Counted from the stretch's first letter, positions 1,018 through 23,615 are shown. The stretch is DNA of 64,000 bases from a virus (IMGVR_UViG_2721755846_000003:1-64000); one strand, 5' to 3'. Notes: generated by a model from the sequence alone, not told the origin. Program-made: numbers and translations.

Positions 1018-1049
1018 GACCCCGCTCCCTTCCTGATGTGCGGGCGTGA

Positions 1050-1115: not shown

Positions 1116-1204
1116 CCGCCTCCACTGGTCTCGCGCCTACAAGTCGGCCCCCGGTCGGGGCCTAGGAAACGCCGACCGGGGGCCACGTCAGATGGAGCTG
1201 ACGC

Positions 1205-2087: not shown

Positions 2088-2200
2088 CGTGCTGCGGCCA
2101 GCCCATGAAGCAGGACAACGGTCAGTGGGTGTGCACCGGCGGGTGCGGCGCCTGGTTCGACGCCGGGGTGGCCCCGGCCCCGGCTGGAGGTGGCCGCTGA
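2084..2200 (+). CDS. Small Zn-ribbon-like protein (38 aa)
   Basis: TCCGQPM...WVCTGGCG; coupled at both ends. Confidence 0.55.
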   Translation: MTCCGQPMKQDNGQWVCTGGCGAWFDAGVAPAPAGGGR

Positions 2201-2385
2201 TGGGCCTCCGTGACTTGCTCCTGAGCGTCACCCCCGGCCAGGGCCCGGCTGCCGCGGCTGTCCAGCGGGAGAAGAAGGAGACCCGCCGGGCGAAGCAGCA
2301 GGCCCGGGAGCAGCAGGCCAGCCGGGACCGGGCCCACCGCCACAAGCGGGACACCGAGCAGCCCAAGCCTGGAGTGAATCCCTGA
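2200..2385 (+). CDS. Small basic hypothetical protein
   Basis: TGATG coupling, GGAGG RBS. Confidence 0.55.
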   Translation: MGLRDLLLSVTPGQGPAAAAVQREKKETRRAKQQAREQQASRDRAHRHKRDTEQPKPGVNP

Positions 2386-2469
2386 CCGACCTGGGCCGCT
2401 GTCCCAATTCCCCCCGGGGCGGCGGCCCGGGTCTCCCTCTTATGACCCACGAGCCCGAAGGGCAGCACC

Positions 2470-3651
2470 ATGACCGAGACACCCGAGACGCCGCAGCATT
2501 GGCAGCCGGGTACGCGCCGCAAGAAGGTCAAGATCCAGCGGGCGGAGACCACCGTCATCGACGGCAGGCCGTCCACGCGGATGGTGCCTGACGAGGTGTG
2601 GGTCACCCTCCCGCCGCGCGACTGGGACGAGATCATTCGGCGCGGTGTCACCACCGTGGCGGTCGTCGTCACAGTCCTGGCTGCGGCCGGGACCACGGCG
2701 AGCGTCGGCGGCCTGCTGTCGAACATGCTGCACCCGGGCGTCGCGTACGCCGTGGGCGTGGTGTTCACGTCCTCCTGGTTGGCCTGCCTCGGCGTTGAGC
2801 ACATCGAGCGAGTGGACGCCGGCCGCGCCCAGCGGGCCCGGATCGGCGGGTGGGCGGCCCTGATCATCAGCATGGGCGCCGTCATCACGTACGGCCACAC
2901 CCTGGACCTGCTGCCCGCCGGTGTCGTCGGCTCCTGCCTGGACCTGCTGGCCAAGGGCCTGTGGTTCCTGGTCATGGGACTGGACACGGTGAATCTGGAC
3001 CCCGGCGTCGCCCACTGGGTCGCCGAGGAGGAGCAGCACATGGCCGGCCGGTTCCTGCTCGGGACCCGCCTGGCCCGCCTCAACCGGCGCGCCGTCCAGA
3101 TGCGGGCAGGGGGCCCGGAGTTCCAGGCGGCGGAGGCGATCCTGGCCCAGGCCAGCGGCCACCAGGCGCAGCAGCTCCCGGCCGCGGACACGTCCGGACA
3201 GGCCGCGCCCGTGTCCGCTCCGGTGTCCGGACAGCCGCAGGCCCCGGCCCAGGCGCCGGTGTCCGGACACGTCCCGGACCCGTCCCCGACCACGCCGAGC
3301 GCGCCCGCGCCGTCGACGTCGCCCCCGGCAGCCCCTGTGCCGCCGCCTGCCGTCCCGACGCCGCCCGTACCGCCGGTCGCCCCGGCAAGCACCGGCGCGT
3401 CCGGCAGCAGCCAGCAGGGCCAGGGCGGCGGCCCCGGCCTGCGCCCCGTGGGCCCGCCCAGCAAGGCCCAGACCATCCGCGACGTCCTGGTCGCAGACCC
3501 CAAGATCAGCGACGCCGACCTGATCGAGCACGTCAAGGCCGTCCACGGCGACGGCGGCGACGCGGCCAAGTTCGCGGACACCGTGACCCGTACGCGGCGG
3601 CGCATCGAGAACCCGCCCGCGCCCCGCACCAAGAAGACCCGGAGCGCCTGA
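2470..3651 (+). CDS. Multi-TM protein with Pro-rich linker and C-terminal putative DNA-binding domain (plasmid spread/Spd-like)
   Basis: About 4 hydrophobic helices, Pro/Ala linker, basic helical C-terminus (SKAQTIRDVL...DTVTRTRRR); architecture typical of Streptomyces plasmid spread proteins. Confidence 0.6.
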   Translation: MTETPETPQHWQPGTRRKKVKIQRAETTVIDGRPSTRMVPDEVWVTLPPRDWDEIIRRGVTTVAVVVTVLAAAGTTASVGGLLSNMLHPGVAYAVGVVFTSSWLACLGVEHIERVDAGRAQRARIGGWAALIISMGAVITYGHTLDLLPAGVVGSCLDLLAKGLWFLVMGLDTVNLDPGVAHWVAEEEQHMAGRFLLGTRLARLNRRAVQMRAGGPEFQAAEAILAQASGHQAQQLPAADTSGQAAPVSAPVSGQPQAPAQAPVSGHVPDPSPTTPSAPAPSTSPPAAPVPPPAVPTPPVPPVAPASTGASGSSQQGQGGGPGLRPVGPPSKAQTIRDVLVADPKISDADLIEHVKAVHGDGGDAAKFADTVTRTRRRIENPPAPRTKKTRSA

Positions 3652-3791
3652 TGACCACGCCCCAGTGGCTCGCCCTCGAAGCTTTCGCCGGCCTGGTGAT
3701 GTTCTTCCGCTGCCGCAACGACCTGTGGCGCCTGGGCGGCCTGCTCATGACCGGCGTTGCTCTGCTGTACCTGCTCTCAGGGGTGGAGTAG
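3651..3791 (+). CDS. Small membrane protein
   Basis: TGATG coupling, two hydrophobic segments. Confidence 0.55.
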   Translation: MTTPQWLALEAFAGLVMFFRCRNDLWRLGGLLMTGVALLYLLSGVE

Positions 3792-4510
3792 TGCGCTACG
3801 CCGTCCTGCTGCTGGTCGCCGCAGGCGGCGCCTACTGCTGGCTGCGCTACCGCGGCCCGGGGCGCACCTCGAGCGCCCACCGCCCCCGCCCGGGCGGCCG
3901 GCCGATCGAGGGCGCGGGCGCCTCCGCGGATGCCCACGCCCGGGAGCTGCGTACCCCGCTGGTGCGCCTGGCCACCGCGGCAGGGATCACCACCCGCGCG
4001 GAGGCCCACGCCCGGAACTTTGCGACCGGAGCCGAGGGGGAGCGGTACGTAGCCCAGCTCCTGGAGCCCTTGACCCGGGAGGGGTGGGTGTTCCTCGCCG
4101 ACTGCGCCCTGCCGCACGGTGAGGCACAGGTGGACCTGCTGGGCTTCGGCCCGCGCGGCCTGGTCGTGAACGTGGACCCGAAGAAGTGGGACCGCCGTTT
4201 CCGCCTGAGCGTGCGTGGCAACCGCCTGCTGCACGGCACCAAGGACGTGTCCGGGCGCATGCGCGGCCTGGCCTACGAGACGCGCACCGTCGCCGCCCTG
4301 CTGTCCGTGCCGGTCGTGCCGGTCGCCGCCATGGTCGGCCCGATGCTGCGCGGCACGATCCTGCGCTTCCGCGGCATCCGCCTCGTCCCGGCCGAGGACG
4401 TCCCCGAGTTGCTGCGCGCCCTGGACCGCACGCACCTGACCACCATCCCCTCCGGCCGTCTCGCCGACACCGCCCAGCGGCTGCTGCCGCCCAAGATCAC
4501 CAAGAGGTAA
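3791..4510 (+). CDS. NERD (PD-(D/E)xK) nuclease-related protein with N-terminal TM
   Basis: GAEGE..VA..L, F.AD, QVDLLGFGP.G..N.D.K.W motifs. Confidence 0.8.
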   Translation: MRYAVLLLVAAGGAYCWLRYRGPGRTSSAHRPRPGGRPIEGAGASADAHARELRTPLVRLATAAGITTRAEAHARNFATGAEGERYVAQLLEPLTREGWVFLADCALPHGEAQVDLLGFGPRGLVVNVDPKKWDRRFRLSVRGNRLLHGTKDVSGRMRGLAYETRTVAALLSVPVVPVAAMVGPMLRGTILRFRGIRLVPAEDVPELLRALDRTHLTTIPSGRLADTAQRLLPPKITKR

Positions 4511-4514
4511 CCCC

Positions 4515-4700
4515 GTGCTGAGCTACTGGGACGTTCTGGCCGTCGCTCTCCTCGGCCCCCTGTTCTTCGTGAACCCCATGCGCTTTCGAAACCTCTACCG
4601 GGCCCTGGCCGCCTATGCCCTGTGCGGCGTGGCCATCGGCGCTGCGTACGTGCTGGTGACCCGCCCCGCTGGCGACTGGATCGCGGGGGTGCTCGGATGA
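4515..4700 (+). CDS. Small membrane protein
   Basis: GAGG RBS, two hydrophobic helices. Confidence 0.6.
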   Translation: MLSYWDVLAVALLGPLFFVNPMRFRNLYRALAAYALCGVAIGAAYVLVTRPAGDWIAGVLG

Positions 4701-5653
4701 CCGCCGGACCCGACGAGCGCACCCTGCACGTCATCCCGGGCGGAGGCCCCGAGAGCGAGCAGGATGCGGAGGACCGCATCCGCGGGGAGCTGCGCCGCCT
4801 CGGCGTCGGCCCGGGCGGCCCGGCCTCCTCGCCGCCGCCCATGCCCGCGCACCCTCCGGTCGTACCTCCGCAGCAGGCCGCCGCCGACGTCGACCAGGAG
4901 CCGGGGGATCAGGCGGACTACGGGGGGTTCGCGGACTGGTTGCGCGCCAAGCGAGCCGCCCGCCAGGAGTCGCACAACCCGGAGCCGGACGACGCCGACG
5001 AGGCCGAGGGCGCCACCCCGGCCCGGGCGGACAACGACCGGCTGCCGCCGTGGTGGGACCACCGCAAGCCGGACCTGGACGACCAGACCGTCGACGACGA
5101 GGAGCCGGGGGAGGAGCCCGAGGAGAGGCCCAAGGCCAAGGCCCGCGGCCCCCAACCGGCCCGCCGCCGCGTGTCCAAGACCTCCCGGCGCCCGCCCGCC
5201 GACGACGAGCAGGGCGACGACGAGCAGGGCGACGACGAGGAGGAGGACGAGGAGGAGGCGGGGGAGCAGGTCCCGGACGGGCCACGCTGGTCCCGGCCCT
5301 CCCTCGCCCGGCCGCCCGGCCTGCCGCCCAAGCGCCAGAACCTCATTACCTGGTGGCGCCAGGACGTCGAGGACTACCAGAAGTGGCTGCTGTACCACGG
5401 CACCGGCCTGGGCGCGGGCGTGTACTTCGGCGTCTTCACCTACGGCACCCGCGGGGCGGAGTTCGTCACCCAGCAGGGACTGGGCGACCTGGAAGCGGAC
5501 TTCACCGTGGGCCTGCTCGGCCTGGTCCTGATGGTGGACTACCGCGTCCGCAACCTCTTCCCGCCGCTCGCCTGGCTGGTCCGCGCCGTCTCCACCTCCC
5601 TGGTCCTTGGCGCCGCCTGGAACGGCACCCCCCTCGCCGACCTCACGAACTGA
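4697..5653 (+). CDS. Membrane protein with acidic disordered N-terminus
   Basis: ATGA overlap; C-terminal hydrophobic helices. Confidence 0.7.
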   Translation: MTAGPDERTLHVIPGGGPESEQDAEDRIRGELRRLGVGPGGPASSPPPMPAHPPVVPPQQAAADVDQEPGDQADYGGFADWLRAKRAARQESHNPEPDDADEAEGATPARADNDRLPPWWDHRKPDLDDQTVDDEEPGEEPEERPKAKARGPQPARRRVSKTSRRPPADDEQGDDEQGDDEEEDEEEAGEQVPDGPRWSRPSLARPPGLPPKRQNLITWWRQDVEDYQKWLLYHGTGLGAGVYFGVFTYGTRGAEFVTQQGLGDLEADFTVGLLGLVLMVDYRVRNLFPPLAWLVRAVSTSLVLGAAWNGTPLADLTN

Positions 5654-5666
5654 ACGGAGCCACCTC

Positions 5667-6065
5667 ATGGACGCAATCGACCTTGGAATCGGCGGCGTCG
5701 CGACCGTCCTGGTCATCGTGCTGTGGTTCGGCACCAAGGGCGGCGGCAAGCTCGGCACCCTCTCCTGGGGGTGGACCCTGTTCCTCGCCATGGTCGCCGG
5801 CTGCGCCTTCAAGGCCGCCGGACAGCCGTGGTCCTGGTTCACCGACCTCGTCAACGGCGGCCTGGGCATGCTCGGCGACGCTGCGCCCGGCATCACCGCC
5901 GCCGGTATGGCCGTCATCCTCATCGCCATCGCCTGCTTCGTGAAGCTGACCCTGCGCAAGGTCGCCCTGGTGGGCGTGGCGTTCTTCTGCGTGGCCGCCG
6001 GCGCGGGCGGCCCCTTCGAGTGGTTCGCCGGCCGTATCGAGGTCGTCGCCATGCACTGGGCGTGA
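5667..6065 (+). CDS. Integral membrane protein (about 4 TM)
   Basis: GGAG RBS; almost wholly hydrophobic. Confidence 0.75.
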   Translation: MDAIDLGIGGVATVLVIVLWFGTKGGGKLGTLSWGWTLFLAMVAGCAFKAAGQPWSWFTDLVNGGLGMLGDAAPGITAAGMAVILIAIACFVKLTLRKVALVGVAFFCVAAGAGGPFEWFAGRIEVVAMHWA

Positions 6066-6070
6066 CGCCG

Positions 6071-7270
6071 ATGACCGCCGCCCTGCACCTGGTCCCCGAC
6101 CCCGACGAGCCCACCCCGCCGCCCGATACGGCAGGGGAGCAGCACCCCACCCCGGAGGCGGCCCCGGCCGCCGCCGAGGAGCAGGGGGAGGAGCTGCCCG
6201 GCGACGCCGAGCCGGGGGAGGAGGACACCCCGGACGACGACCAGGCCGACCTGGACGACGAGGAACCCGCCCCCGGGCGGGCCCTCGCCATGCCCGACCT
6301 GCGCCCCTACGTTGACCCCTCCTGGATCCCGGCCGTCATCAACGCCGGCGCCGAGGGCACCCGCTGCTGGCGCCAGCGCGCCCCGGAGCGCAAGGCCGCC
6401 CGCCGCGCGGACAGGAAGAAGCGGGAGGCGGCCGGGGAGCTGTTCGGCCGGCGCAGGGCGTGGCAGATGGCCGCGGACTACCTGAACGGAACCCGCCTGC
6501 TGCTGGGCCACCTGGCCGCCTGGCTGTCGGGGGAGTACGGCCCCAAAGACATGAAGGTGCCCGCCCGCCTGGTCGCGGTCGGCGTCGCCGGGTACTGCGC
6601 CGTGCGCACCGTCATGGCCTGGCCCGTGTGGGGCACGGTCGGGTTGACGGTGGTGTACTGCGCCGCCGCCCTCGGCGCCCTCCACCGGCAGCGCGCCGAG
6701 CAGGCCCCGAAACAGCCCAGCGGCAAGACCGCCAAGACGGCCAAGGTGCCCGGACCACCCCCCGCCCGGGCCGCCGTCCAGGCCCCCGCCGAGGGCCCCG
6801 TCGAGGACGCCGACGACTCCCTCGCCGAGGCCGCCGAGGAGGCTCCTGCAGAGCCTCCGCTGACCGCCCTCATCCGGGCCGAGATCGGGACCGAAAACGG
6901 GGTCCACCTCGCCGACCTACGGCCCGCCATGCGGGCCACCTTCCCCCACCTCTCCGAGGCCACGGACGAGGAGCTGCGGGAGGTGCTCGAACAGGCCGGA
7001 TGGGACCCCTCCAAGAAGTTCCGCGCGAGGGGCCGCGCTGGGCGCCAGGGAGTGCACCGAAACCAGCTCCCGCCACTGCCCTCCCCCGGGGGCGGCCCTG
7101 GCCACTCCCCGGACCACTCTCCGCAGGGCGGAGACCGGCCCCGACCTGCGGACTCTTCGGAAGCGGAGAGCAGCGGAGACCAGGCGGAGAGCGGTGGAGA
7201 CGGGGGGGTGGACATCATTCCGGACCCCGACCGGGGCCCCAGCGCCTGGCGGGTGGTCCCCCGCCGGTAG
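6071..7270 (+). CDS. Membrane protein with C-terminal putative winged-helix domain
   Basis: Two TM helices, then LTALIR...GVHLADL...LREVL...R.RGR..RQGVH. Confidence 0.65.
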   Translation: MTAALHLVPDPDEPTPPPDTAGEQHPTPEAAPAAAEEQGEELPGDAEPGEEDTPDDDQADLDDEEPAPGRALAMPDLRPYVDPSWIPAVINAGAEGTRCWRQRAPERKAARRADRKKREAAGELFGRRRAWQMAADYLNGTRLLLGHLAAWLSGEYGPKDMKVPARLVAVGVAGYCAVRTVMAWPVWGTVGLTVVYCAAALGALHRQRAEQAPKQPSGKTAKTAKVPGPPPARAAVQAPAEGPVEDADDSLAEAAEEAPAEPPLTALIRAEIGTENGVHLADLRPAMRATFPHLSEATDEELREVLEQAGWDPSKKFRARGRAGRQGVHRNQLPPLPSPGGGPGHSPDHSPQGGDRPRPADSSEAESSGDQAESGGDGGVDIIPDPDRGPSAWRVVPRR

Positions 7271-7292
7271 CCTCGCCCGCCCGTTCGGCACA

Positions 7293-7331
7293 CCCTGCGC
7301 CCGATTCGAACTGACCGAATCGGGCGCAGGG
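7293..7331 (+). terminator. Perfect 16-bp stem hairpin after the operon
   Basis: CCCTGCGCCCGATTCG-aactgac-CGAATCGGGCGCAGGG. Confidence 0.6.
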
Positions 7332-7424
7332 CTCTTGTCACGGATCGAGGCACAACGGTTACGCACAGCCCCCGTGATCGGTCACCATGGGGCAGACAGG
7401 CTTACGCGGAGGAGGGCAGCAGGA

Positions 7425-7661
7425 ATGGTCAGGCGGTACCGGTGCGACGACTGCGCGGGCACGTCGGGCCTGTGCTTCACGGACGGCATGCTGTGGCGCG
7501 AGACCCAGCGCCACCGACTGCTGGAGCACGCCGGCCTCCGGCCGGACGGCGAGCGCGTCATCGTCGTGCCGGTCGCCCGGCTGGTGGACATCCCGCGCGG
7601 CCAGGCCATCGCCACGGTGGTCCTGTTCACCGTCCTGATCGCCTGGGCGCTCCTGCGCTGA
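7425..7661 (+). CDS. Small CxxC protein with C-terminal TM
   Basis: GGAGG RBS, YRCDDC, hydrophobic tail. Confidence 0.6.
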   Translation: MVRRYRCDDCAGTSGLCFTDGMLWRETQRHRLLEHAGLRPDGERVIVVPVARLVDIPRGQAIATVVLFTVLIAWALLR

Positions 7662-7686
7662 CCGCGCCCGCTCCCCCGCCCACAGC

Positions 7687-7722
7687 AAAGGGCCCGCGCT
7701 CCCCGTGGAGTGCGGGCCCTTT
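7687..7722. terminator. Bidirectional terminator between convergent genes
   Basis: AAAGGGCCCGCGCTCC-ccgt-GGAGTGCGGGCCCTTT. Confidence 0.75.
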
Positions 7723-7743
7723 CTGCCGCCTACGGCGCGGGCG

Positions 7744-8250
7744 CTACGAGGCGCCGGCGGCTGCCTTCTTCCTGGCCTCCCGGCCCCACCGCATGATCGT
7801 GTTGCGGTCGAACTCGGAGGCGTCCGCCAGGGTCTGGGCGCTGGCGTGGTTGTCCAGGTAGTGCTGGGTGGCGGCGGCCTGGAGGGCAATGTGCGTCTTG
7901 CTCTCGCGCTCCTCGGCCTTGGTGAAGTCGGTGGTGAGCCGGTCCAGCTCCGCCAGGGCGGCGGCCACCACTTCCGGGTCGTAGACAGGCACCTCGGCCG
8001 GCTGGCCCTTGACGCGTAGCGGCTTGACGCCGGCGTTGCGCGCGATCACGCCGACGTGGTTGCGGTCGTAGGGGGTGTGGTCGGAGACCTCCCCGGGTGG
8101 GGCGTTGCGCTCCCGCAGGTGGCGCACGATCGCCTCTTGCAGGGCGTCCCGGGCGGCGGTGACGGCGTCCTTATCGGCGCTCAGCTTGGCGCGCTGGCGC
8201 TTGAGCTCGCGGACAGCACGAGCCTCGGTGGTGGGGTCGTAGGTCGGCAT
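7744..8250 (-). CDS. Tandem-duplicated HTH protein, probable repressor of the adjacent gene array
   Basis: Two similar halves (PTYDP...YDRNHV / PVYDP...FDRNTI); divergent from operator-bearing promoter P1. Confidence 0.7.
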   Translation of the reverse strand: MPTYDPTTEARAVRELKRQRAKLSADKDAVTAARDALQEAIVRHLRERNAPPGEVSDHTPYDRNHVGVIARNAGVKPLRVKGQPAEVPVYDPEVVAAALAELDRLTTDFTKAEERESKTHIALQAAATQHYLDNHASAQTLADASEFDRNTIMRWGREARKKAAAGAS

Positions 8251-8308
8251 GCCCAGCACTATGCCATATCGGGTTGCAATGTGGAAGCGCAGCAGTGCGC
8301 CATGCGAG

Positions 8309-8378
8309 GCAACTTGACATTGCAATGCCGAGTTGCAAGTATGTGGGTGTCAGGACGGGCGAGGGGCCCGGCCGGAAC
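8309..8378 (+). promoter_or_regulatory. Array promoter/operator P1
   Basis: GCAACTTGACATTGCAATGCCGAGTTGC palindrome containing -35 TTGACA, xAxxxT 17 bp downstream, conserved leader. Confidence 0.8.
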
Positions 8379-8391
8379 GGAAGGACACGCC

Positions 8392-9531
8392 ATGAACACC
8401 ACCACCACCACCGCCCCGGCCCAGGTCGGCAAGGGCCGCACCGTCCACCAGGTCCCCACCAGCGAGATGGTGACCCTGTGCGGCAGCACCGCCACCAGCG
8501 TCCTGACCGCCGCCGAGGCCCAGAAGGGCAAGGCGTGCGCCAAGTGCACCAAGATCGCCGCCCTGCGGACCGCCGCGGCCGGCACCGAGGCCCCGGCCGC
8601 CGAGGAGGCACCCGCCGCCCCGGCCGAGCAGACCCCCGCCGAGGCCGCCCCGGCCGCCGAGATCGCCCCGGCCGTGGAGGCCGCCCCGGTGTGGCGCACC
8701 CTCAAGGGTGCGGGCACCAACGGCGCGTTCACGATCTACGGCGACCTGCACGAGGCGCGCGGCAAGCTGATCTTCACCTCCTGGGGCACCGCGAAGCAGA
8801 TCAAGGGCCAGCCGTACACCTTCACCCGCCAGTGGAGCGGGAACCGCGGCTTCAACCGCTACCTGGAGGACGTCCTGGGCCGCACCGTGGAGTTCAACGG
8901 CGGCATGGCCACCAGGGTCTGGATGGTGGACGGCGTCCCGGCCCCGGTCGTCGACGTCGCCGAGCAGGCCCCCGCCGAGGAGCCCGAGGCCACCGAGGTT
9001 CCCGCCGCGGACGAGGCGCCCGAGGGGGCCTCCGAGGCGGACGCCGCCCCGGCCGAGGTGGCCGCCCCGGCCGAGGCCCCCGAGGTCGAGGATGCCCCGG
9101 AGGCGGACGACCAGCCCGCCCTGGCCGGGCAGGTCCGGGTGACCGCCTACACCGCCGCCCGGGAGGCCCTGCACATCAACGGCCAGGACAACGACGACCG
9201 CACCCTGACCCTGGACGCCTCCGCCGTCCAGGAGACCGTGGCCGCCATGCGCCGCATGCCCCGCTGGAACGCCGCACGGGAGCGGTTCACGGTCAACAAG
9301 GTGGCCCTGATCGTGGCCCAGGACGCCCAGGGTCAGCGGGTATGGGTGCGCGGCGAGGCCGCCCCGATCCGGGTGGACTTCGCAGGCGAGCCGATCGCCG
9401 AGGACGCCCCCGCCGAGGCCGGCACCGTGGACATGGCCGCCGTCCTGGCCGCCACCCGGGTGCTGCGCCGCCGCGCGGAGGTCCGGCGGGTCATCGACAA
9501 CCGCACCGCCGCCCGAGCTGCCAGCGCCTGA
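8392..9531 (+). CDS. Hypothetical protein (N-terminal H/C Zn-binding motif, Ala/Glu/Pro-rich linkers)
   Basis: AAGGA RBS after P1; TVH...LCG...CAKC. Confidence 0.75.
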   Translation: MNTTTTTAPAQVGKGRTVHQVPTSEMVTLCGSTATSVLTAAEAQKGKACAKCTKIAALRTAAAGTEAPAAEEAPAAPAEQTPAEAAPAAEIAPAVEAAPVWRTLKGAGTNGAFTIYGDLHEARGKLIFTSWGTAKQIKGQPYTFTRQWSGNRGFNRYLEDVLGRTVEFNGGMATRVWMVDGVPAPVVDVAEQAPAEEPEATEVPAADEAPEGASEADAAPAEVAAPAEAPEVEDAPEADDQPALAGQVRVTAYTAAREALHINGQDNDDRTLTLDASAVQETVAAMRRMPRWNAARERFTVNKVALIVAQDAQGQRVWVRGEAAPIRVDFAGEPIAEDAPAEAGTVDMAAVLAATRVLRRRAEVRRVIDNRTAARAASA

Positions 9532-9642
9532 CCGACCGGCCCCGCCACGGACGCCCCGCCCCCGCCCAGGGGACCGGGGCGCCGGCCGTTCCGGGGCCCT
9601 CGTACGACGCACGGGTGAACCGACCACGCAACCCCATAAAGT

Positions 9643-9709
9643 AACTTGACATTGCAATGTGGAGTTGCGAGAGTGTGAGTGTCAGACGGGCGAGGGGCCC
9701 GGACGGAAC
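9643..9709 (+). promoter_or_regulatory. Array promoter/operator P2
   Basis: AACTTGACATTGCAATGTGGAGTTGC plus conserved leader. Confidence 0.8.
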
Positions 9710-9724
9710 CGGAGGGACAGCGCA

Positions 9725-10483
9725 ATGAACACCACCGCCAAGGCCGCGCAGCAGATCGCCCGCCTCGTTGGGGCCGAGGACGCCCTCACCACCGCCCGCC
9801 GCGAGGAGGCCCGCACCGCCAAGACGGCGGAGCGCGCCACCGCCCGCGCCAAGGCCGCCCGCGCCAAGGTCGCCCCCGCCCGCACCGAGCTGCGCAAGGC
9901 GGAGCGCGCCGGTAAGGGCGTGGCCGCCGCCATCCGCCGCCTGGCTGCCCGCATGGCCAAGGCTGCCGACCTGGCCCAGACCGCCCGCCAGGCCCGCTAC
10001 GCCGCCCGCCTGGCCGCCCGCGCCGCCACCACCGCCGCCCGCCGACTGGACCGCCTGGCCCTGCGCGCCGCCACCACCGCCAGCCGCATGGTGGGCGAGG
10101 TCGCCGAGCGCATGGGCCGCCGCACCACCGCCGCCCCCGAGCAGGACAAGACCCTGCCGGTGGAGGAGCTGCCCGCCGTCGAGGAGATCGAGGCCCACGC
10201 GGACCGCTTCAAGGACCTGGACGCCGAGGCCAAGGCCCAGGCCAAGCTGGCCGACGCCGAGAAGAAGTGGCTGCGCCGCCTGCCCGTGGGCCAGTACGGC
10301 CGAGTGATCGTCACCCGCACCAACGGCGGCACGGTCCTCGACGGCGACCAGGTCGCCGTGGACTACCTGGACAACGGCATGGGCGTTCCCCCGCGCAAGG
10401 GCCGCAAGGACACCTTCAAGGTCGCCGTGGAGGCCCCGGCGGTCGAGACCGCCGACCAGGTCGCCCTGGTGATCGCCGCCTGA
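9725..10483 (+). CDS. Ala/Arg-rich coiled-coil protein
   Basis: GGAGG RBS after P2; ends VALVIAA. Confidence 0.75.
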   Translation: MNTTAKAAQQIARLVGAEDALTTARREEARTAKTAERATARAKAARAKVAPARTELRKAERAGKGVAAAIRRLAARMAKAADLAQTARQARYAARLAARAATTAARRLDRLALRAATTASRMVGEVAERMGRRTTAAPEQDKTLPVEELPAVEEIEAHADRFKDLDAEAKAQAKLADAEKKWLRRLPVGQYGRVIVTRTNGGTVLDGDQVAVDYLDNGMGVPPRKGRKDTFKVAVEAPAVETADQVALVIAA

Positions 10484-10556
10484 CCCACAACCCCCGCCCC
10501 GCCGGGCACCGCTACGGTGCCCGGCCCCCACCCCCACCGAGAACGGAGCACACCCC

Positions 10557-10982
10557 ATGTCGATCCTGCCCCGCCACACCCCCGCCGTTCACCTGGACGC
10601 CCTCACCGAGGAGCTGGAGGCCGCCGGTACCACCCTGGGCCCCGTCAAGCCCGGCACCCGCGTGACCCGCATCGTGGACCACGGCGGAATCCGCTGGACG
10701 GTGACGTTCCTCGGAGCCCGCTACGGGTGGGCGCTGCGCGGCCCCGGCATTGAGCACGGCGTGGGCATGGACGCCCCCGAGGTCGCCGAGCACATCGCCG
10801 CCGCCGCCCTGGACGCCGAGGAGCCCGGCATCCCGGCACCGGCCACCTGGCGCGGCGTGCCCGTGCCCGAGGAGTACGCCACCCGCTGGGACAGCCCGGC
10901 CGCCGTCGCCTGGCGAGAGGGAGCAAGCGCCGCTCTGGCCGTCGCCAAGCTGACCGCCGTCGCCGCCCAGGGCGACAGCTGA
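10557..10982 (+). CDS. Hypothetical protein
   Basis: GGAG RBS, GC3 bias. Confidence 0.7.
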   Translation: MSILPRHTPAVHLDALTEELEAAGTTLGPVKPGTRVTRIVDHGGIRWTVTFLGARYGWALRGPGIEHGVGMDAPEVAEHIAAAALDAEEPGIPAPATWRGVPVPEEYATRWDSPAAVAWREGASAALAVAKLTAVAAQGDS

Positions 10983-11050
10983 CCCCCCCCCACCGCCCGG
11001 GCCGGGCGCACCCGATAGGCGCCCGGCCCCCCACGGAATGAGCCACCGCC

Positions 11051-11233
11051 ATGGCCGCACCTGCCCTGTACGGAGTCGCCGCCCGCTCCGTCGCCACCGG
11101 CGACCTGATCACCTGCGACTCCGCGTTCGACCTGGAGGACCTGCCCGCCCTGCTGGAGGACCACCGCATCCGCTACGCGGACCGCGACGACGTGCTGATC
11201 GACCTGGACACCACCCCCCTGGCCGCCAACTGA
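11051..11233 (+). CDS. Small acidic hypothetical protein
   Basis: Lies between two array hairpins; GC3 bias. Confidence 0.65.
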   Translation: MAAPALYGVAARSVATGDLITCDSAFDLEDLPALLEDHRIRYADRDDVLIDLDTTPLAAN

Positions 11234-11355
11234 CCCCACCCACCCGGGCCGGGGCGGGCGCACCCGATGGGCGCCCGCCCCGGCCCCTGCTGCTGGAGGC
11301 CCCTGGGTGACCCGCAGGGGTGAACCTCTCGCCATGCGGACACGCACCCCGCAGT

Positions 11356-11423
11356 GCAACTTAATATTGCAAGGTGGAGTTGCAGGTATGGGGACACCGG
11401 AAGGGCGCAGGGCTCGACCGGGA
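11356..11423 (+). promoter_or_regulatory. Array promoter/operator P3
   Basis: GCAACTTAATATTGCAAGGTGGAGTTGC plus conserved leader. Confidence 0.7.
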
Positions 11424-11436
11424 AGGGAGGCAGACC

Positions 11437-11661
11437 GTGTTCACCGTTGGCCAGCAGATCCGCACCCTCGTCGACCTCGCCGAGACCGAGGCGTACGACA
11501 CCGGCGACTGGGAGGGCGAGGAGGGTATCGAGGCCCCCGCCGGGACGCTGGGAGTCATCCAGTCCCTGCCGGACCTCACCGGCTACTACGGGGTGCTTCT
11601 GCACTGTGACCCGGACGACGTTCCCGCGGAGTACAGCGCGGACGAGATCGCCGCCGCCTGA
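11437..11661 (+). CDS. Small acidic beta-rich (SH3-like?) protein
   Basis: GGGAGG RBS, GTG start; FTVGQQIRT; ends EIAAA. Confidence 0.7.
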   Translation: MFTVGQQIRTLVDLAETEAYDTGDWEGEEGIEAPAGTLGVIQSLPDLTGYYGVLLHCDPDDVPAEYSADEIAAA

Positions 11662-11739
11662 CCCCCCGGCCCCCACCCCGGGCCGGGCGCACCCGATATG
11701 CGCCCGGCCCTGCACCGCCCACCTGAGAGGACACCCCCC

Positions 11740-12234
11740 ATGGCCCGCCGCACCGTAACCCCCCGCACCCTGGACCTGTTCACCGGCCGCGACGGCGCCG
11801 CCCTCACCTTCGCGGAGGTCACCGTCATGCTCGTGGCCATGACCTCCGCCCAGGTGGCCACCTGGAAGTGGGTGGGCGACGAGACGGACGGCACCGACCC
11901 CGTCCAGGGTTGGGAGGTGCGCGACTCCACCGGCTCCCTGCTCGGCGCGATCCTGCCCCTCGGCCACATGGCGACCAGCCTCCACGCGGAGTGGTACGAC
12001 CCGCAGGCGGACGACTTCTTCCCGGCCGGGGAGACCAGCGCCCCCGTGCTCACGCAGGCCATCTCCATGGTGGTCCACGCCCGCCGCTACGCCGTGGGAC
12101 AGCTCCCCGCCGGCCGGGACCTCGTCCTGGACCCCGTCCTGCCTGCGCCGCGCCGCAACCAGTCGTGCTCGTTCGGCTACTGCTGGGACGAGCACTGCCC
12201 GGACCACGGGCCCGTGTGGGCCGCCGCGGCCTGA
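11740..12234 (+). CDS. Hypothetical protein with C-terminal C/H cluster
   Basis: GAGG RBS; CSFGYCWDEHCPDH; ends AAAA. Confidence 0.7.
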   Translation: MARRTVTPRTLDLFTGRDGAALTFAEVTVMLVAMTSAQVATWKWVGDETDGTDPVQGWEVRDSTGSLLGAILPLGHMATSLHAEWYDPQADDFFPAGETSAPVLTQAISMVVHARRYAVGQLPAGRDLVLDPVLPAPRRNQSCSFGYCWDEHCPDHGPVWAAAA

Positions 12235-12300
12235 CCGCCGCCGGGCGGCTCCCCCGCCCCTGACCAGCAGCATTCCCGGGCGATACGCCCACCCAAATGA

Positions 12301-12368
12301 AACTTGACAATGCAATGTCGAGTTGCAATCATGGCGAACACCAGGACGGGCGCAGGGCCTGACCGGAA
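12301..12368 (+). promoter_or_regulatory. Array promoter/operator P4
   Basis: AACTTGACAATGCAATGTCGAGTTGCAATCAT plus conserved leader. Confidence 0.8.
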
Positions 12369-12385
12369 CCCCCCAGGAGCACCAG

Positions 12386-12901
12386 ATGGCCGCCACCACC
12401 GCCGCCCGCACCGCCACCCCGTACGCGTACCGCCAGTGCGCCGCCCGCGCCCGCGACCTCGCGGACATCCTCCGCGCCCGCCTGGACGGCCACCCCCACC
12501 GCAGCGAGCTGCTGGTGTTCATCGGCCACCTGCACACCGCCGCCGAGGGGTTCGAGACCGCCGAGCCCCTGGTCATGGACGGCGTGACGATCCCCAACGT
12601 CACCCCCTCCGAGGGCCACCTGCCCCTGCTTATGGCCGTGACCCACGCCGCCGACCACCCGGAGGCCGGCATCTCGGAGGCCGTGTTTGCCTACGTCACC
12701 GCCCCCGTCACCCGCCGCACCTACCGCCTGGAGCCGCAGGCCAGCGGCGGCCGCGAGGACGCCGAGCTGCGCACCCGCATCGCCCTGGCGGAGCACGACC
12801 TGGCCACCGAGGGTGACCCCACCACCCGCTACGCCCTCCTGGCCACCCTCGTGCAGCTGCACGGCGACCACCTCGCCCGCGGCGGCGAGGTCGCCGCCTG
12901 A
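12386..12901 (+). CDS. Hypothetical helical protein
   Basis: AGGAG RBS after P4; ends GEVAA. Confidence 0.75.
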   Translation: MAATTAARTATPYAYRQCAARARDLADILRARLDGHPHRSELLVFIGHLHTAAEGFETAEPLVMDGVTIPNVTPSEGHLPLLMAVTHAADHPEAGISEAVFAYVTAPVTRRTYRLEPQASGGREDAELRTRIALAEHDLATEGDPTTRYALLATLVQLHGDHLARGGEVAA

Positions 12902-12979
12902 CCCACCCCGCCCGGCCGGGCGCACCCGATATGCGCCCGGCCCCCAGCCCCCCGACCCACCAGGAACGGAGTAGGACCC

Positions 12980-13717
12980 ATGCGCAACTACGGCACCTTC
13001 CAGGCCATCGGCGGCCGTGACAACCAGTGCGACGCCACCGCCGTGCACACCGCCCCCGGCGGCGCCCGCGCCTACGTCTTGCTGGACGGCATCGGCGACA
13101 AGCCGTACGTGCGTGACTGGACCCGCACCGCCGCCCGCCGCCTCGCCCGCAGCGCCGCCCAGCTCCTCGACGCCTCCGCCGGCCTGCGCGGGGAGTACAT
13201 CCGCTATGCCGCCCAGCCGGACCGCCACGGCCTCTGGGGAGCGGGCCCCACGGCGTGCGCCGTCGTGGCCGTCGAGGCCCCCGGTCAGCCGCTCACCGTC
13301 GCCTGGTGCGGCGACGTGCGCGCCTACTGGCTCGTGCGCGGCACCCTGCGCCGCCTCACCCAGGACCACAACCTGCGCCGCGTGTTCCCGCCCTGCGAGA
13401 CGTACCCGCAGGGCGGCAGTCGCCACGCGGTCACCAGCTGCCTCGGCTCCGTCAACGGCGACGAGGAGCTGATGCGCGAGGTCCGGCACCCGGCCATCGA
13501 GACGGCCGCCATCGGCGCCGAGCGCGGGCGCCTGCTGCTCGCCTGTGACGGCGCGTACGAGCCCCACGAGGACGCCGGACACCAGCTCTCCGACCTGCTG
13601 TACGGCACACCCGCCGAGGCCGCCCGCCGCGTCGTCAACGACGCCGTGGCCACCGCCCTGACCGTCACCCACCGGCCGGACAACGCCACCGCCCTCGTGG
13701 CCGACCTGTACGCGTAA
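12980..13717 (+). CDS. PP2C/PPM-family Ser/Thr protein phosphatase
   Basis: R..QCD, LDGIG, AWCGDVRAY, LTQDH, LLLACDG, DNAT motifs. Confidence 0.88.
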   Translation: MRNYGTFQAIGGRDNQCDATAVHTAPGGARAYVLLDGIGDKPYVRDWTRTAARRLARSAAQLLDASAGLRGEYIRYAAQPDRHGLWGAGPTACAVVAVEAPGQPLTVAWCGDVRAYWLVRGTLRRLTQDHNLRRVFPPCETYPQGGSRHAVTSCLGSVNGDEELMREVRHPAIETAAIGAERGRLLLACDGAYEPHEDAGHQLSDLLYGTPAEAARRVVNDAVATALTVTHRPDNATALVADLYA

Positions 13718-13810
13718 CCGCAGGCCGGACGGTATTCGGACGTGTCCACCCCTGCCTGCGGACACGTCCGGACACCGGCCCGCGAGCATCCGCGCGACAC
13801 CCTGCAACAC

Positions 13811-13878
13811 AACTAGACATTGCAAGGTTAAGTTGCAATCATGAGTCATGTCAGGAAGGGCGCAGGGCCCGACCGGAT
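13811..13878 (+). promoter_or_regulatory. Array promoter/operator P5
   Basis: AACTAGACATTGCAAGGTTAAGTTGCAATCAT plus conserved leader. Confidence 0.75.
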
Positions 13879-13889
13879 CGGAGCAACTC

Positions 13890-14063
13890 ATGAAGACCAC
13901 CGTTGGCCAGCGAGTACGGATCACCATCGCCCTGGACGGCGAGAGGTACCCGATCGGCACCGAGGCCACCGTCACCGACCACTGGCTTGGAAATCCCGTC
14001 GTCACGCTCGACGGCGGCGAGACCGTGACGCTGATCCCCGGCCAGGTCCTACCGGCCGCCTGA
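13890..14063 (+). CDS. Small beta-rich (SH3-like?) protein
   Basis: GGAG RBS; TVGQRVRIT, similar to 11437; ends VLPAA. Confidence 0.7.
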   Translation: MKTTVGQRVRITIALDGERYPIGTEATVTDHWLGNPVVTLDGGETVTLIPGQVLPAA

Positions 14064-14151
14064 CCCACCGCCAGACCCCGGGGGCCGCACCCGATATGCG
14101 GCCCCCGGCCCGGCACCCCCAACCAGCACCGCACGAGGGAGCGCGCCACCC

Positions 14152-14373
14152 GTGACCACCACCAGCACCGCCGCAGCCGCCGCCCCGGCACCCGTCCAGG
14201 GATGCCCCGGCCCCGCCCGCGCCCACTGCGCCTACTGCGGCAGCCACAGCACCCGCCCGGCGGACCTGCTCAGCAACGGAGACACCTACTGCTGCAGCGC
14301 CCCGGTATGCCGCGGCGACCGCGGGGACTGCGTCGCCGAACTGGGCGCCCACGAAAAGAGCTTCACCCCCTGA
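14152..14373 (+). CDS. Small Cys-rich Zn-binding protein
   Basis: HCAYCG...YCCSAPVC; GAGGGAG RBS. Confidence 0.65.
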   Translation: MTTTSTAAAAAPAPVQGCPGPARAHCAYCGSHSTRPADLLSNGDTYCCSAPVCRGDRGDCVAELGAHEKSFTP

Positions 14374-14456
14374 CCACCCCCACTGGCCGGGGCCGCACCC
14401 GATATGCGGCCCCGGCCCCTGACCCCCACACCCACGCACGTAAGGAGCCACCCCGC

Positions 14457-15410
14457 ATGTCGGACATCGAGATCACCCACACCCACGAAGACGGCACCCT
14501 GGCCACCGGCACGGACAAGGGCGACGGCGCCGGACCGATCCTCAAGCGCTACGGGTTCCGCTGGGGCTACTCGATCGAGGCGTACTACGTCCGCGACAGC
14601 CGCGACCGCGCCGCCCGCCGCGTAGCCATCAACGCCGCGGCGGAGGAGCTGCGCACGGACGGCCACACGGTCACCGTCGAGATCAACGACACCCCGCGCG
14701 ACAACGCCACGGTGCGCGCCGACAAGCACGAGCGGCTGGAGGACCGCCGCACGGGCCTGGCCGCCAAGGGTCAGCGCCTGGCCGCGGAGTCCGCCGCCCT
14801 GCACGCCCGCTCCGACGCGATGGTGGAACACCTGCCGCTGGGCCAGCCGGTCGCCCCCGGACGCAAGGGTCGGGCCCACCGCAACCTGCTGGAGCGCTCG
14901 GTGGACACCGCCATCAAGGGTGCCCTGGCGGCCGGCGAGGCGGAGCGCATGCCCGCCCGCATCGTCGCCTCCCGCCGCGCCGAGGCCCGCGCCGAGCGCC
15001 CGGACGTCGTGGCCCGCCGCGTCGCCAAGATGGAGGCCGACGTGCGCCGCCTCGACCGCCGCATGGCCAGCCTGACCCTGTACCCCGCCGCCAACTCCGA
15101 CGCCCTGCGCGAGCAGTACGAGGGGGAGCGCGCCACCCTCCTGGAGCGCATCAAGGGTGACCAGGAGCTGTTGGACCAGGCCAAGGCGGAGGGCCGGTTC
15201 GGCCAGTACAGCCGGGACAACGTCCACAAGCACGACCTCGTGCGGATCCGCGGCCAGTGGCGCACCGTGGCCCGCGCGAACGCCAAGACCGTGGCCGTCA
15301 CCACCGGCTACTCCTGGACGGACAACTACGGCTGGGAGGAGGTCAAGGGCCTGCGCTGCGGTCACGTCGAGGACACCGACCAGGCCGCTGCCGAGACCGC
15401 CACCGACTGA
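14457..15410 (+). CDS. DUF3560-like protein
   Basis: ITHTHEDGTL..GT.KGD, GFRW, HLPLGQP, coiled coil, W.TV.R.N.KTV.V. Confidence 0.75.
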   Translation: MSDIEITHTHEDGTLATGTDKGDGAGPILKRYGFRWGYSIEAYYVRDSRDRAARRVAINAAAEELRTDGHTVTVEINDTPRDNATVRADKHERLEDRRTGLAAKGQRLAAESAALHARSDAMVEHLPLGQPVAPGRKGRAHRNLLERSVDTAIKGALAAGEAERMPARIVASRRAEARAERPDVVARRVAKMEADVRRLDRRMASLTLYPAANSDALREQYEGERATLLERIKGDQELLDQAKAEGRFGQYSRDNVHKHDLVRIRGQWRTVARANAKTVAVTTGYSWTDNYGWEEVKGLRCGHVEDTDQAAAETATD

Positions 15411-15414
15411 CCGC

Positions 15415-15557
15415 CCGGACACGTCCGGGCACCACCAGCCGGACGTGTTCGGACATCACCTGGCCGGCACGGACACCAGCCCACCGGACACGGGGCGGAC
15501 ATACCCGCCCCGTGTCCGGACACCCGCTCCGGGCAGTGTCCGGACACGAGAGGACAC
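15415..15557. repeat. Dense cluster of (C)GGACA(C)/TGTCC(G) motifs
   Basis: About ten copies in both orientations, including palindromic GTGTCCGGACAC. Confidence 0.8.
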
Positions 15558-15661
15558 CATGAGCAGCCCCCCGCCCGTCACCGCCCCGGCCGCCCACTCC
15601 ACCCCGGGCGGGCCCTCGCTGTGATCGCAACTGGGCTTACTGAAAGCGGTGTTCGGGCAAT

Positions 15662-16366
15662 ATGGCGGGCATGGACGGTGAGGTGACGGCCGCGCTGATT
15701 GGCGGCGCGAGTGGCTTGGGCGGCGCCCTGCTGGGCGGCGCGGCCGCAGTGTGGGGCGCGAAGCACCAGGGGCGGCTGGCGGTACAGGCGGCGCTGGAAA
15801 CGGCCCGCTCGGCCTACCTGGGACCACTCGACACCGCGCGCCGGTCAGCACAGCGCGACGTGTTCGCGACTTTCCTCACCGTCTCGCAGGAGTGGGCCCG
15901 GGCCGCTGAGGCGGCCACGGATGCCGCCCGGCAATGGGACGCGCACGTAGCTGATGCCATTCAGCGGTGCAGGGCCGAGGGGCACGACTACATGGGCGTG
16001 AATGCGGAGCTCCGGCAGCACTGGGATAGGCGCATCGAACGCTGCGGCGCACCGCAAAGAGTCACCGAAGCAGCCCAGCATGTGCTGTTGGAGGCCGCTA
16101 CCACAGACGTGGCGAGGGCTGCCCAGAACGTGGAGCAACACGCGATACGGCTCATGAGCCTCCTGCGTGATGCGGGGGCGACTCAAATCGCGTCCGACAG
16201 CCAGTCGCCGGATGACCCGTCGAACCTCGTGCCGCCATACCCTGGGCGTTCGCCGAACCAGCTCAGGGCCTTGAAGGAAGCAATCGAGGCATTCACGTGG
16301 GCCGCGGCGGCGCACCTCAACAGCCGCGATACCGACAACCGCCCCGACGCCTCCAACTCTGCCTGA
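15662..16366 (+). CDS. Accessory protein with N-terminal Gly-rich TM helix
   Basis: AALIGGASGLGGALLGG; codon usage differs from neighbours. Confidence 0.7.
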   Translation: MAGMDGEVTAALIGGASGLGGALLGGAAAVWGAKHQGRLAVQAALETARSAYLGPLDTARRSAQRDVFATFLTVSQEWARAAEAATDAARQWDAHVADAIQRCRAEGHDYMGVNAELRQHWDRRIERCGAPQRVTEAAQHVLLEAATTDVARAAQNVEQHAIRLMSLLRDAGATQIASDSQSPDDPSNLVPPYPGRSPNQLRALKEAIEAFTWAAAAHLNSRDTDNRPDASNSA

Positions 16367-16495
16367 CCGCACAGTTCACCGACGGCAGGCAACCCCCTCG
16401 GACCTGGGCGGGCCCTCGTCGTCCCCAGGGGCCACCTCGCCGCCCGGCGTACCCTGCTCCGCTGCCCAAGCAGCCCCCGAGCAGGGACAACGCCC

Positions 16496-17366
16496 ATGAC
16501 CCAGGCCACCTACGTCCGCACCGAAGACGTCGCCCTCGGCGACCTGCGCCCGTTCCCCGGCAACGCACGCCGCGGCGACCCCGCCGTCATCCTGCAGAGC
16601 CTGGTCCGCACAGGGCAGTTCCGCAGCCTCATCGTGCGCGACACCGGCCACGGCCTGGTGGTGCTCGCCGGTAACCACACCCTCCAGGCCCTGGCCGCCC
16701 ACGGCCCCGGCCCCTGCGGCATGACCACCACCACCGATGACGGGGAGCTGCCGTGCGCCCTGTGCGGCGGCCAGGAGTGGGCGCCCGTCGCGCGCTGCGA
16801 GATCGTCACCTGCGACGACGCCACCGCCACGCGCATCAACCTCGTGGACAACAAGGCGGCGCAGACGGGCGGGTGGGATGAGCAGGCCCTGGCGGAGCTG
16901 ATCGCCGGACTCGACGGCGACCTCGCCGGCACCGGCTACACCGACCAGGACCTGGCCGACCTCCTCGCCGCCATCGAGGAGGCATACGAGGAAGAGGACC
17001 AGGAGGAGCCCGCGCCCGATCAGCCCGCCCCGGCCGGGAACACCGAGCCCGCGCAGCCGGCCACCTCGAGCGCCCCGCCGGCCAGCGCGGACGGCATCCC
17101 GGACGGCCCCGCCCCCGGCACCCTCGCCCCACCCCTGCCGGACGGCATGCGGTCCATGCTGCTCACGTACACCGCCGCCGACCGCGACGAGGCGGCCCGC
17201 CTCGTGTCCGCGGCCCGGGACGTGTTCGACAGCGCGGATGCCTCGTTCATCATCCTGCGCGCCCTGCGGACCCTCGTCGCCGTCCGTCCTGGACTCCCGC
17301 CACGCCCACGACGGCATCGTGACCGTGGCCGCCCTGCTCAAAGCCGCAGGAGCCGAGCAGCAGTGA
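16496..17366 (+). CDS. ParB/Srx-like protein 1, frameshifted near 17281 and thereby fused to the downstream ORF
   Basis: PFPGNARRGD, SL...GQFR, VVLAGNHT, INLVDN; CGTC duplication at 17281-17288, removal of which restores a stop at 17364-17366. Confidence 0.75.
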
Positions 17367-23611: not shown

Positions 23612-23615
23612 ACCC

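Follow-up and report, generated by a model that had tools for sequence, protein, structure and literature searches.

Here, we describe a family of stable hairpins that stand behind the stop codons of single genes in a prophage and combine one invariant apical loop with freely covarying stems. The hairpins lie in a 64,000-nucleotide (nt) stretch of viral DNA (IMGVR_UViG_2721755846_000003:1-64000; the window), which forms the first 64 kb of an 82,855-nt record classed as a provirus and has a G+C content of 73%. The block at 8250-15410 is the early, lytic-side (repressor-side) region of a Streptomyces prophage; its layout, a divergent gene followed by five co-directional promoter-headed units, is that of a repressor-controlled early region of a temperate actinophage. 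Six copies of the element, termed hairpin A and recognised by the apex CACCCGAT, are found among the 11 genes (g1-g11, Table 1) of this block. Judged from the sequence, there is about an even chance that they act in the sense-strand RNA, where they would end or protect the early transcripts of single genes, with the loop read by some partner and a role as homology linkers arising as a by-product.

All seven hairpins that an earlier note on this DNA had listed were recovered, namely six copies with the CACCCGAT apex (10999-14417) and one at 10501 with a different loop. The descriptions given there also held. The stems occur in the variants GGGCGCA/TGCGCCC and GGCCGCA/TGCGGCC, the six copies begin 16, 12, 16, 12, 14 and 11 nt after a TGA stop, and every gene of the block (11/11) is preceded either by a promoter repeat (8311, 9643, 11358, 12301 and 13811) or by a hairpin. 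The lack of a U-tract was likewise borne out by a consensus scan of positions 7500-16500, which gave no terminator-like site; the 8 nt that follow the stem contain 0-1 T in six of the seven hairpins, and 3 T are present after 11286, in the tail of the unit-end copy at 11246 that has the longest stem. Stems in the window comprise 11-17 bp, and the fold energies of -24.8 to -46.3 kcal/mol correspond to z-scores of -3.3 to -6.9 against dinucleotide shuffles. A search with a degenerate 17-mer built on the apex returned the six hairpins and one non-hairpin site at 24326 (2 mismatches), a total of 7 sites that was reached in none of 100 shuffles (mean 0.63). Throughout the 82,855-nt record, exact matches to a 13-mer number six, each of them in one of these hairpins and on the plus strand, and the reversed control gave no site.

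Conservation in relatives, on which the earlier note had made its proposal depend, was also observed. The same hairpin is carried by five related prophages, comprising two IMG/VR proviruses and three prophages within Streptomyces genomes, and with the window these make up six genomes with 28 copies, every one of which is sense-strand and lies 10-23 nt behind a TGA. Covariation was assessed with an alignment of 26 copies (25 distinct), the counts from which are liable to inflation by the kinship of the six genomes. Here, 94.3% of the paired cells are complementary, compared with 25-46% when the partner is slid, 7 of the 12 stem pairs have changed on both sides, and the covariation score was reached by none of 500 shuffles. 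Pairwise identity is 1.00 in the loop (CCCGAT), 0.90 in the inner stem, 0.61 in the outer stem and 0.56 and 0.42 in the flanks; variable columns number 0 of 6 in the loop versus 16 of 24 in the stem (Fisher p = 0.005). Thus, the previously proposed fixed loop on a covarying stem is not only upheld but strengthened by the six-genome alignment. Two variants found later retain the loop and have altered loop-adjacent pairs, one by a compensated change of C-G to T-A and the other to U-G.

The copy behind g7 is identical over 29 nt in five genomes, although the flanking proteins are only 66-93% identical. The orthologues of the hairpin at 10501 provide an internal control: over six genomes the stem is kept and five different loops occur (cta, gtac, ccta, gcac and accag), which shows that loops free of constraint do drift at a site of this type. 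The constancy of the apical loop, set against a stem that covaries freely, implies that mere folding does not suffice and that a loop-reading partner may exist.

One more instance of the loop 10-mer, ACCCGATATG, is found at 8266-8276 on the minus strand; it precedes the divergent gene's start by 17-27 nt and shows conservation in relatives L050 and L053. About 0.1 such site would be expected by chance on a rough estimate. Given that this site has no significant fold (z = 0.19) and that the three left arms are near-identical, it was given no weight.

Searches of a wider range of DNA indicate that hairpin A is restricted to phage. A covariance model applied to three whole host genomes (8.5-10.7 Mb each) gave 14 matches, which are the 14 known copies and lie without exception within the prophage early block. 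With a 19-mer, 7 of 401 sampled Streptomyces genomes matched, and clusters were found in only two. The same scan of metagenomes returned 41 loci, all of them single chance matches that added no new relative; in 27 the stem is no longer than the pattern itself, and in 14 no hairpin was scored. Of 20 loci returned from IMG/VR, two are relatives, and the sole relative in the phage collection is Streptomyces phage TurkishDelight, in which 22% of the query (the block) is matched at 70% identity. TurkishDelight has repeated promoters, the same leader and, as in the window, U-less hairpins after TGA, with different loops. The view in the earlier note that the element belongs to no described family agrees with the Rfam search (including CRISPR repeats and terminator and leader motifs), in which nothing in the 64 kb reached the gathering score; at E up to 1, two weak matches were obtained in 8200-15600, both inside genes and away from the hairpins. 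Together, the host-genome, 19-mer, metagenome and Rfam searches identify the motif as rare and phage-borne rather than a host-wide repeat. Relatives without the CACCCGAT hairpin also exist, and phosphatase identity is 66% both for L030, a non-carrier, and for L038, the most distant carrier.

A second hairpin family with the same design was found in a sister lineage. L046, a more distant relative, has four post-stop hairpins with the loop CTCGACC on other stems. Among the loci listed from an IMG/VR scan with a 15-mer (L096-L175), clustered hairpins with this loop are present in three (L117, L146 and L163), a single 9-bp hairpin is present in L175 (41% G+C), and none occurs in the remainder. The family totals 28 copies, 23 of them aligned and five found by the model with the same loop. 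Alignment of the 23 copies shows no variation in CTCGAC, two-sided changes at every one of the 13 pairs and pairing in 92.3% of cells, and none of 500 shuffles came up to any of the measures. The two loops have C-N-C-G-A in common, and the bases that flank them are mostly A before and T or G after (A:T or A:G in 25/26 and 20/23 aligned copies of the first and second family, respectively). Nearly every gene of the second-family lineage has its own promoter with paired palindromic operators and is followed by a hairpin; in L117, an IMG/VR provirus (1-10698), 12 CTCGACC-loop hairpins and 12 promoters, each with two TGTAGCTACA operators, are packed into 10.7 kb.

No Rfam match was obtained at E up to 0.1 in three second-family loci. 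Covariance models returned no second-family hairpin from Raleigh or phiC31, single weak matches from 2 of 151 Streptomyces genomes, and the four known copies plus two weak ones from a 5-genome search; in such scans, scoring extended to 37-150 candidates per genome out of the more than 10,000 from the first look, so these blanks are weak. In the window itself, an isolated 11-bp hairpin with the loop CTCGACC lies at 658-688 (46.3 bits with model R2). No sense gene precedes it, and the sole well-supported gene there is on the minus strand (1-678).

A literature search, which did not cover the older phiC31 papers, turned up no account of this motif. Actinophages are already known to have repeated early promoters and U-less hairpins; the feature for which no description was found is a covarying stem with an invariant, asymmetric loop that exists in two versions, one per lineage, and only among phage early genes.

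The five promoters that head the units are sigma-70-like and near-palindromic and consist of TTGACA, a 17-nt spacer and an A-N3-AT hexamer; a sigma-70 scan with an extended -10 element was passed by two of the five. The promoter repeat could be aligned in 29 copies from the window, three related proviruses and TurkishDelight. These repeats represent operator-promoters of the repressor type, and their arrangement is a known one for the early region of a prophage. After every promoter follows a conserved leader (8345-8391, 9677-9724, 11392-11436, 12335-12385 and 13845-13889) composed of a small GGGC-N5-GCCC hairpin and then GACCGGAA. The stem of the leader hairpin is kept with two G-U-compatible changes, the five-base loop is variable, and the leader element is also found in TurkishDelight; it may serve as a 5' stabiliser or as a nut-like site.

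In L049 and L052 the operator is a different palindrome (TTGGCCAA cttgac TTGGCCAA) and the divergent gene is absent, and these prophages probably have another immunity type. The same CACCCGAT hairpins are kept across this change, which argues that the hairpin is not the site of the repressor. The divergent gene itself occurs only in relatives with the TTGCAA-type operator (the window, L050, L053 and, in part, L051) and is thus a candidate immunity regulator for operators of this type, although Pfam and PDB searches with the gene at 7744..8250 gave no match. At two unit ends (13724-13783 and 15410-15550), perfect palindromes of 10-12 bp (TGTCCGGACA type) are clustered as larger inverted repeats. 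Palindrome units of this type occupy the same places in relatives, including L030 and L035, which are without the CACCCGAT hairpin, and may be a second operator or the real unit terminators.

The reading that we favour, in which hairpin A closes early transcripts, can be formulated as follows. The early region would be transcribed as five short units, each with a near-palindromic operator-promoter at its head and a stable hairpin behind the stop codon, both within units and at unit ends. In the sense RNA, the CACCCGAT hairpins would act as U-less terminators or attenuators, or as barriers to 3'-exonucleases, and would define and protect the 3' end of the transcript of each cistron and insulate neighbouring units. 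A partner, either a protein or another RNA and of phage or host origin, would read the loop and either make the U-less hairpin work or switch it off. The recurrence of one 25-40-nt sequence at numerous gene borders would also provide a homology patch through which single genes could be gained, lost or swapped. We infer an action at the RNA level, a role in termination or stability and the existence of the loop-binding partner from several properties of the element. It is tied to the 3' end of the upstream cistron by its constant sense orientation, by its tight post-stop spacing and by the variable distance to the following start, which is 20-48 nt for 23 of 25 copies with a downstream start called. 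Its flanks contain 59-66% C and 14-20% G, compared with 41% C and 33% G in the region. Such a C-rich, G-poor composition is expected at Rho loading sites, and the flanks would fit with Rho loading.

With respect to canonical intrinsic terminators, the G+C-rich hairpin behind the gene is present and the U-tract directly after the stem is absent. In the part of PMC8269248 concerned with transcript 3' ends, 353 mapped ends at strong hairpins without a U-tract, with intermediate read-through, are given for S. clavuligerus. The rule stated there for U-less Streptomyces 3' ends (a hairpin below about -23 kcal/mol and fewer than 3 U in 8 nt) describes hairpin A well, and the copy at 11246 with its 3 T would be classed as U-rich by this rule, unlike six of the seven window hairpins. 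Strong U-less Streptomyces hairpins are also said to terminate in the relevant statement of PMC2602773.

Several points weigh against this reading. By the account given in PMC3993855, purified mycobacterial RNA polymerase requires a U-tract and U-less hairpins failed to terminate in vitro, which makes a simple intrinsic terminator role doubtful in an actinobacterium; the suggestion made by the authors in that account is that U-less hairpins stabilise RNA after downstream Rho-dependent termination. Transcription of the hairpins, termination and processing are each deduced from nucleotide sequence. Kinship among the six genomes deprives the copies of independence, and gene conversion could explain part of the loop identity. 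Stem mismatches in the two alignments comprise two G-U and eight A-C, without an excess of G-U, and as this spectrum carries no strand signal, the sequences do not separate RNA from single-stranded DNA. No candidate loop-binding protein emerged for g2, g7 or the divergent gene from Pfam, PHROGs, PDB sequence and Atlas searches, and in the DNA of relatives that was compared no gene is common to all hairpin-bearing loci.

An alternative raised in the earlier note is that the hairpins are DNA-level junctions for gene shuffling, whether homology patches or folded single-strand sites for a recombinase as in integrons. Differences in gene content between relatives do fall at hairpins, as anticipated there, and equally at promoter repeats. 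The slot between two hairpin copies is occupied by g10 in the window and by an unrelated 131-amino acid (aa) gene in L053, and consists of one hairpin with no gene in L051, L052 and L049. In L051, L053 and L049, g9 is replaced by an unrelated 62-aa gene, with promoter P5 and the hairpin as boundaries. L053 is about 95% identical to the window in g7 and, beyond the intervening hairpin, only about 70% in g8. Some of the exchanges are nevertheless bounded by promoter repeats instead, as in L050, where the missing g5-hairpin-g6 module lies between two of them, and mosaic joints at gene borders are common in phages. The order of genes is the same in all six genomes, with no permutation, and although the record is classed as a complete provirus, no tyrosine recombinase (PF00589), large serine recombinase or Y1 transposase (PF01797) domain was found in its 82.9 kb; the control search with PF00589 matched 14 of 14 reference genomes. 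A dedicated cassette-recombination site, one of the functions put forward in the earlier note, is therefore disfavoured, and homologous exchange at the repeated 25-40-nt borders would be enough for the breakpoints, so that no dedicated system is needed. Integron attC sites, which have an adjacent integrase, conserved core sites at the stem foot, extrahelical bases and a variable loop, also differ from what is seen here, where no integrase was found in the record and the stem foot and flanks vary (0.61 and about 0.5) around an invariant loop. Given that homology patches leave the invariant loop, the fixed strand and the fixed distance to the stop unexplained, shuffling junctions are regarded as improbable.

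Little credence is given to a selfish or neutral palindromic repeat, functionless and resembling repetitive extragenic palindromic (REP) sequences or miniature inverted-repeat transposable elements, in which the loop would be constant through youth or gene conversion. The symmetrical outward fall in conservation (1.00, 0.90, 0.61 and about 0.5) would be expected from arm-anchored conversion tracts, the six genomes form one clade, and stem differences are mostly flips of G-C to C-G without intermediates. Against this, at least three compensated substitutions have altered loop-adjacent pairs, whereas the loop has never changed, and the identity of the post-g7 copy in five genomes exceeds that of the proteins on either side. 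Moreover, all 28 copies have one orientation, though the arms would permit the loop to flip, every copy keeps its 10-23-nt distance from the stop, and the second family obeys the same rule with far more diverse stems. With no Y1 (HUH) transposase in the record, no copies elsewhere in the three host genomes and 14 of 14 host-genome matches within the prophage block, the element also departs from REP sequences and their associated transposases.

A lineage-specific switch is a more serious contender, albeit one that we hold tentatively. Here, a dedicated regulator that binds RNA, be it an antiterminator, a nuclease or a termination factor, would use the hairpins as its cis sites and would owe its specificity to loop 'alleles', as in the N/nut systems of lambdoid phages. 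Such a switch is consistent with two separate families in two related prophage lineages, each with an invariant 7-nt loop, diverse stems and the same post-stop position, and with the C-N-C-G-A and the preceding, mostly A, base that both loops share. The absence of the motif from the rest of the host genomes scanned and its retention under the other operator type of L049 and L052 point in the same direction. It is weakened by the lack of an RNA-binding family match among the early genes, by the lack of a gene shared by all hairpin-bearing loci in the DNA compared and by the fact that the 'code' is based on two lineages only (n = 2).

Other candidates were considered and rejected. A selenocysteine insertion sequence (SECIS) or UGA recoding signal is at odds with the phase from TGA to loop, which is not kept in all orthologues (16 nt + 11 bp in the window, 14 nt + 9 bp in L050); the frame behind g3 meets a stop inside the loop, and homologous proteins end at the same place in relatives. 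The stems are too short for RNase III sites. A hairpin promoter for a phage polymerase was dismissed, as an ordinary promoter follows one copy and the spacing is tied to the stop and not to the start. Likewise, mimicry of a tRNA T-arm would involve agreement at only three loop positions.

The features of the block are collected in Table 1. Only two of the 11 proteins have family matches, namely the PP2C-like phosphatase (g8) and the DUF3560 protein (g11), and g2 is conserved too in relatives without the CACCCGAT hairpin. Downstream of the block are phage genes for a GP88 domain, FolE, QueD, a Mu-F head protein and a 1605-aa protein of tape-measure size. The QueD-like (PTPS) and FolE (GTP cyclohydrolase I) genes at 22431-24287 are typical of phage 7-deazaguanine DNA modification pathways. 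At the left end of the window, the open reading frame on the minus strand at 1-678 has, by eye, the look of a small nuclease with a short motif near the N-terminus and is a candidate only; a Pfam scan of the plus-strand shadow frame opposite it (25-645), the only frame scanned there, gave no match.

Table 1. Genes, promoters and hairpins of the prophage early block (positions in the window)
Feature	Position	Strand	Remarks
Divergent gene, 168 aa	7744..8250	-	Abuts P1; gene call based on third-position G+C (GC3)
P1 operator-promoter + leader	8311..8387	+	Near-palindromic; TTGACA, 17 nt, AAGTAT; repeat family and 29-copy alignment
g1, 379 aa, no known family	8392..9531	+	
P2 operator-promoter + leader	9643..9719	+	
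g2, 252 aa, no known family	9725..10483	+	pI 10.5; Arg/Ala-rich N-terminal half
Seventh hairpin, 11 bp	10501..10525	+	Loop cta
g3, 141 aa, no assigned function	10557..10982	+	
Hairpin A copy 1, 11 bp	10999..11029	+	Apex ACCCGATAG
g4, 60 aa, no assigned function	11051..11233	+	
Hairpin A copy 2, 16-17 bp	11246..11286	+	Longest stem, -46.3 kcal/mol; P2 unit end, just before P3
P3 operator-promoter + leader	11358..11434	+	
g5, 74 aa, no assigned function	11437..11661	+	
Hairpin A copy 3, 13 bp	11678..11712	+	Loop CCCGATA
g6, 164 aa, no assigned function	11740..12234	+	
P4 operator-promoter + leader	12301..12367	+	TTGACA, 17 nt, AATCAT with TG
g7, 171 aa, no assigned function	12386..12901	+	
Hairpin A copy 4, 11 bp	12914..12942	+	29 nt
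g8, PP2C-like phosphatase, 245 aa	12980..13717	+	Stop is TAA; no hairpin A behind
Inverted pair of GTCCGGACAC-type palindromic units	13737..13770	+	P4 unit end
P5 operator-promoter + leader	13811..13877	+	
g9, 57 aa	13890..14063	+	
Hairpin A copy 5, 12 bp	14078..14108	+	GGCCGCA-type inner stem
g10, 73 aa, Cys-rich	14152..14373	+	Hairpin A on either side
Hairpin A copy 6, 13 bp	14385..14417	+	GGCCGCA-type inner stem
g11, 317 aa, DUF3560	14457..15410	+	
Two more palindromes from GTCCGGACAC-type units	15415..15519	+	Array end

A bolder extension of the favoured reading, which we put forward as a possibility well short of even, is an undescribed punctuation system in which each early gene would be closed by a U-less hairpin that works via a loop-reading factor, the loop serving as the address of the lineage (CCCGATA here, CTCGACC in the sister lineage). 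If so, an exchange of factor-loop pairs would let every phage govern the termination or stability of its early transcripts through a control of its own, and free exchange of single early genes would be a further consequence of the shared hairpins. How transcripts end without a U-tract in actinobacteria and their phages is an open question, the polymerase needing a U-tract in vitro and most strong Streptomyces 3'-end hairpins having none. A phage-confined family with a variable stem and an invariant loop provides a handle on this mode of ending and predicts a loop-specific partner. The hairpins may also offer compact, portable insulator parts for Streptomyces engineering, and the arrays illustrate how small early genes, often involved in anti-defence or host takeover, are traded between phages at repeated borders.

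Comparison with known systems reveals partial likenesses. As in the N/nut system of lambda, in which the boxB hairpin is read through its loop by a phage protein and each lambdoid phage has a different pairing, a hairpin of the early operon would have loop-borne specificity that differs between sister lineages. The nut site of lambda lies in the leader ahead of the terminators, once per operon, and has a short stem and a five-base loop, whereas the hairpins described here lie behind genes, at up to 12 per 10 kb across the two families, with stems of 11-17 bp and 7-nt loops. All 28 copies of hairpin A are 10-23 nt behind a coding gene and none is between a promoter and the first gene. By position, the GGGC-N5-GCCC leader hairpin is a better nut analogue than hairpin A, but its loop varies. 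No N-like protein was identified; g2 is basic and Arg/Ala-rich, has no family or structural match and is present also in relatives that lack hairpin A. The stoperators of mycobacteriophage L5, at which its repressor binds, are likewise short asymmetric motifs in many intergenic gaps of a temperate actinophage, oriented with transcription. They are read as duplex DNA, share the sequence of the promoter operator and are not known to lie in hairpins. The window operators, by contrast, are TTGCAA-type palindromes that differ from the hairpin, the hairpin survives a change of operator, and its covarying arms argue for pairing rather than duplex reading.

The early RNase III sites of T7 and the REP 3' stabilisers are also repeated intercistronic hairpins; through cleavage or protection of polycistronic phage or host mRNA they adjust the expression of one gene relative to another. 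Longer duplexes interrupted by internal loops are required of RNase III sites, and REP sequences are host-wide and linked to a Y1 transposase, whereas hairpin A is confined to a prophage block in a record with no Y1 domain. Integron cassettes need an adjacent integrase and reorder freely; in the window the order is fixed, and no integrase was found in the record.

The early region of phiC31, also a temperate actinophage, is again made up of many co-directional short units, with several early promoters under repressor control and a repeated palindromic operator at intergenic sites; between the genes of the phiC31 record, a single perfect palindrome is present in eleven copies. For this phage, Ingham and co-workers reportedly described rho-independent terminators that have no poly-U tail (1995). 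The repeated palindromes of phiC31 are symmetric, duplex-type operators including the loop, in contrast to the asymmetric loop of the window hairpins; neither covariance model matches phiC31, and no conserved asymmetric loop was seen among its intergenic hairpins. The 'HS-U-lack' 3' ends defined by Term-seq in S. clavuligerus, and 'I-shaped' terminators, resemble hairpin A in the G+C-rich stem and post-stop position (PMC8269248). In the part of that source that defines it, the 'HS-U-lack' class is delimited by energy and lack of U, with no motif reported there, whereas the hairpins described here have an invariant loop and occur in a phage block only. Finally, morons are also single genes with their own promoter and a terminator-like hairpin, the presence or absence of which is bounded by these elements. 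Morons are isolated insertions, whereas the window presents a whole array with one hairpin family.

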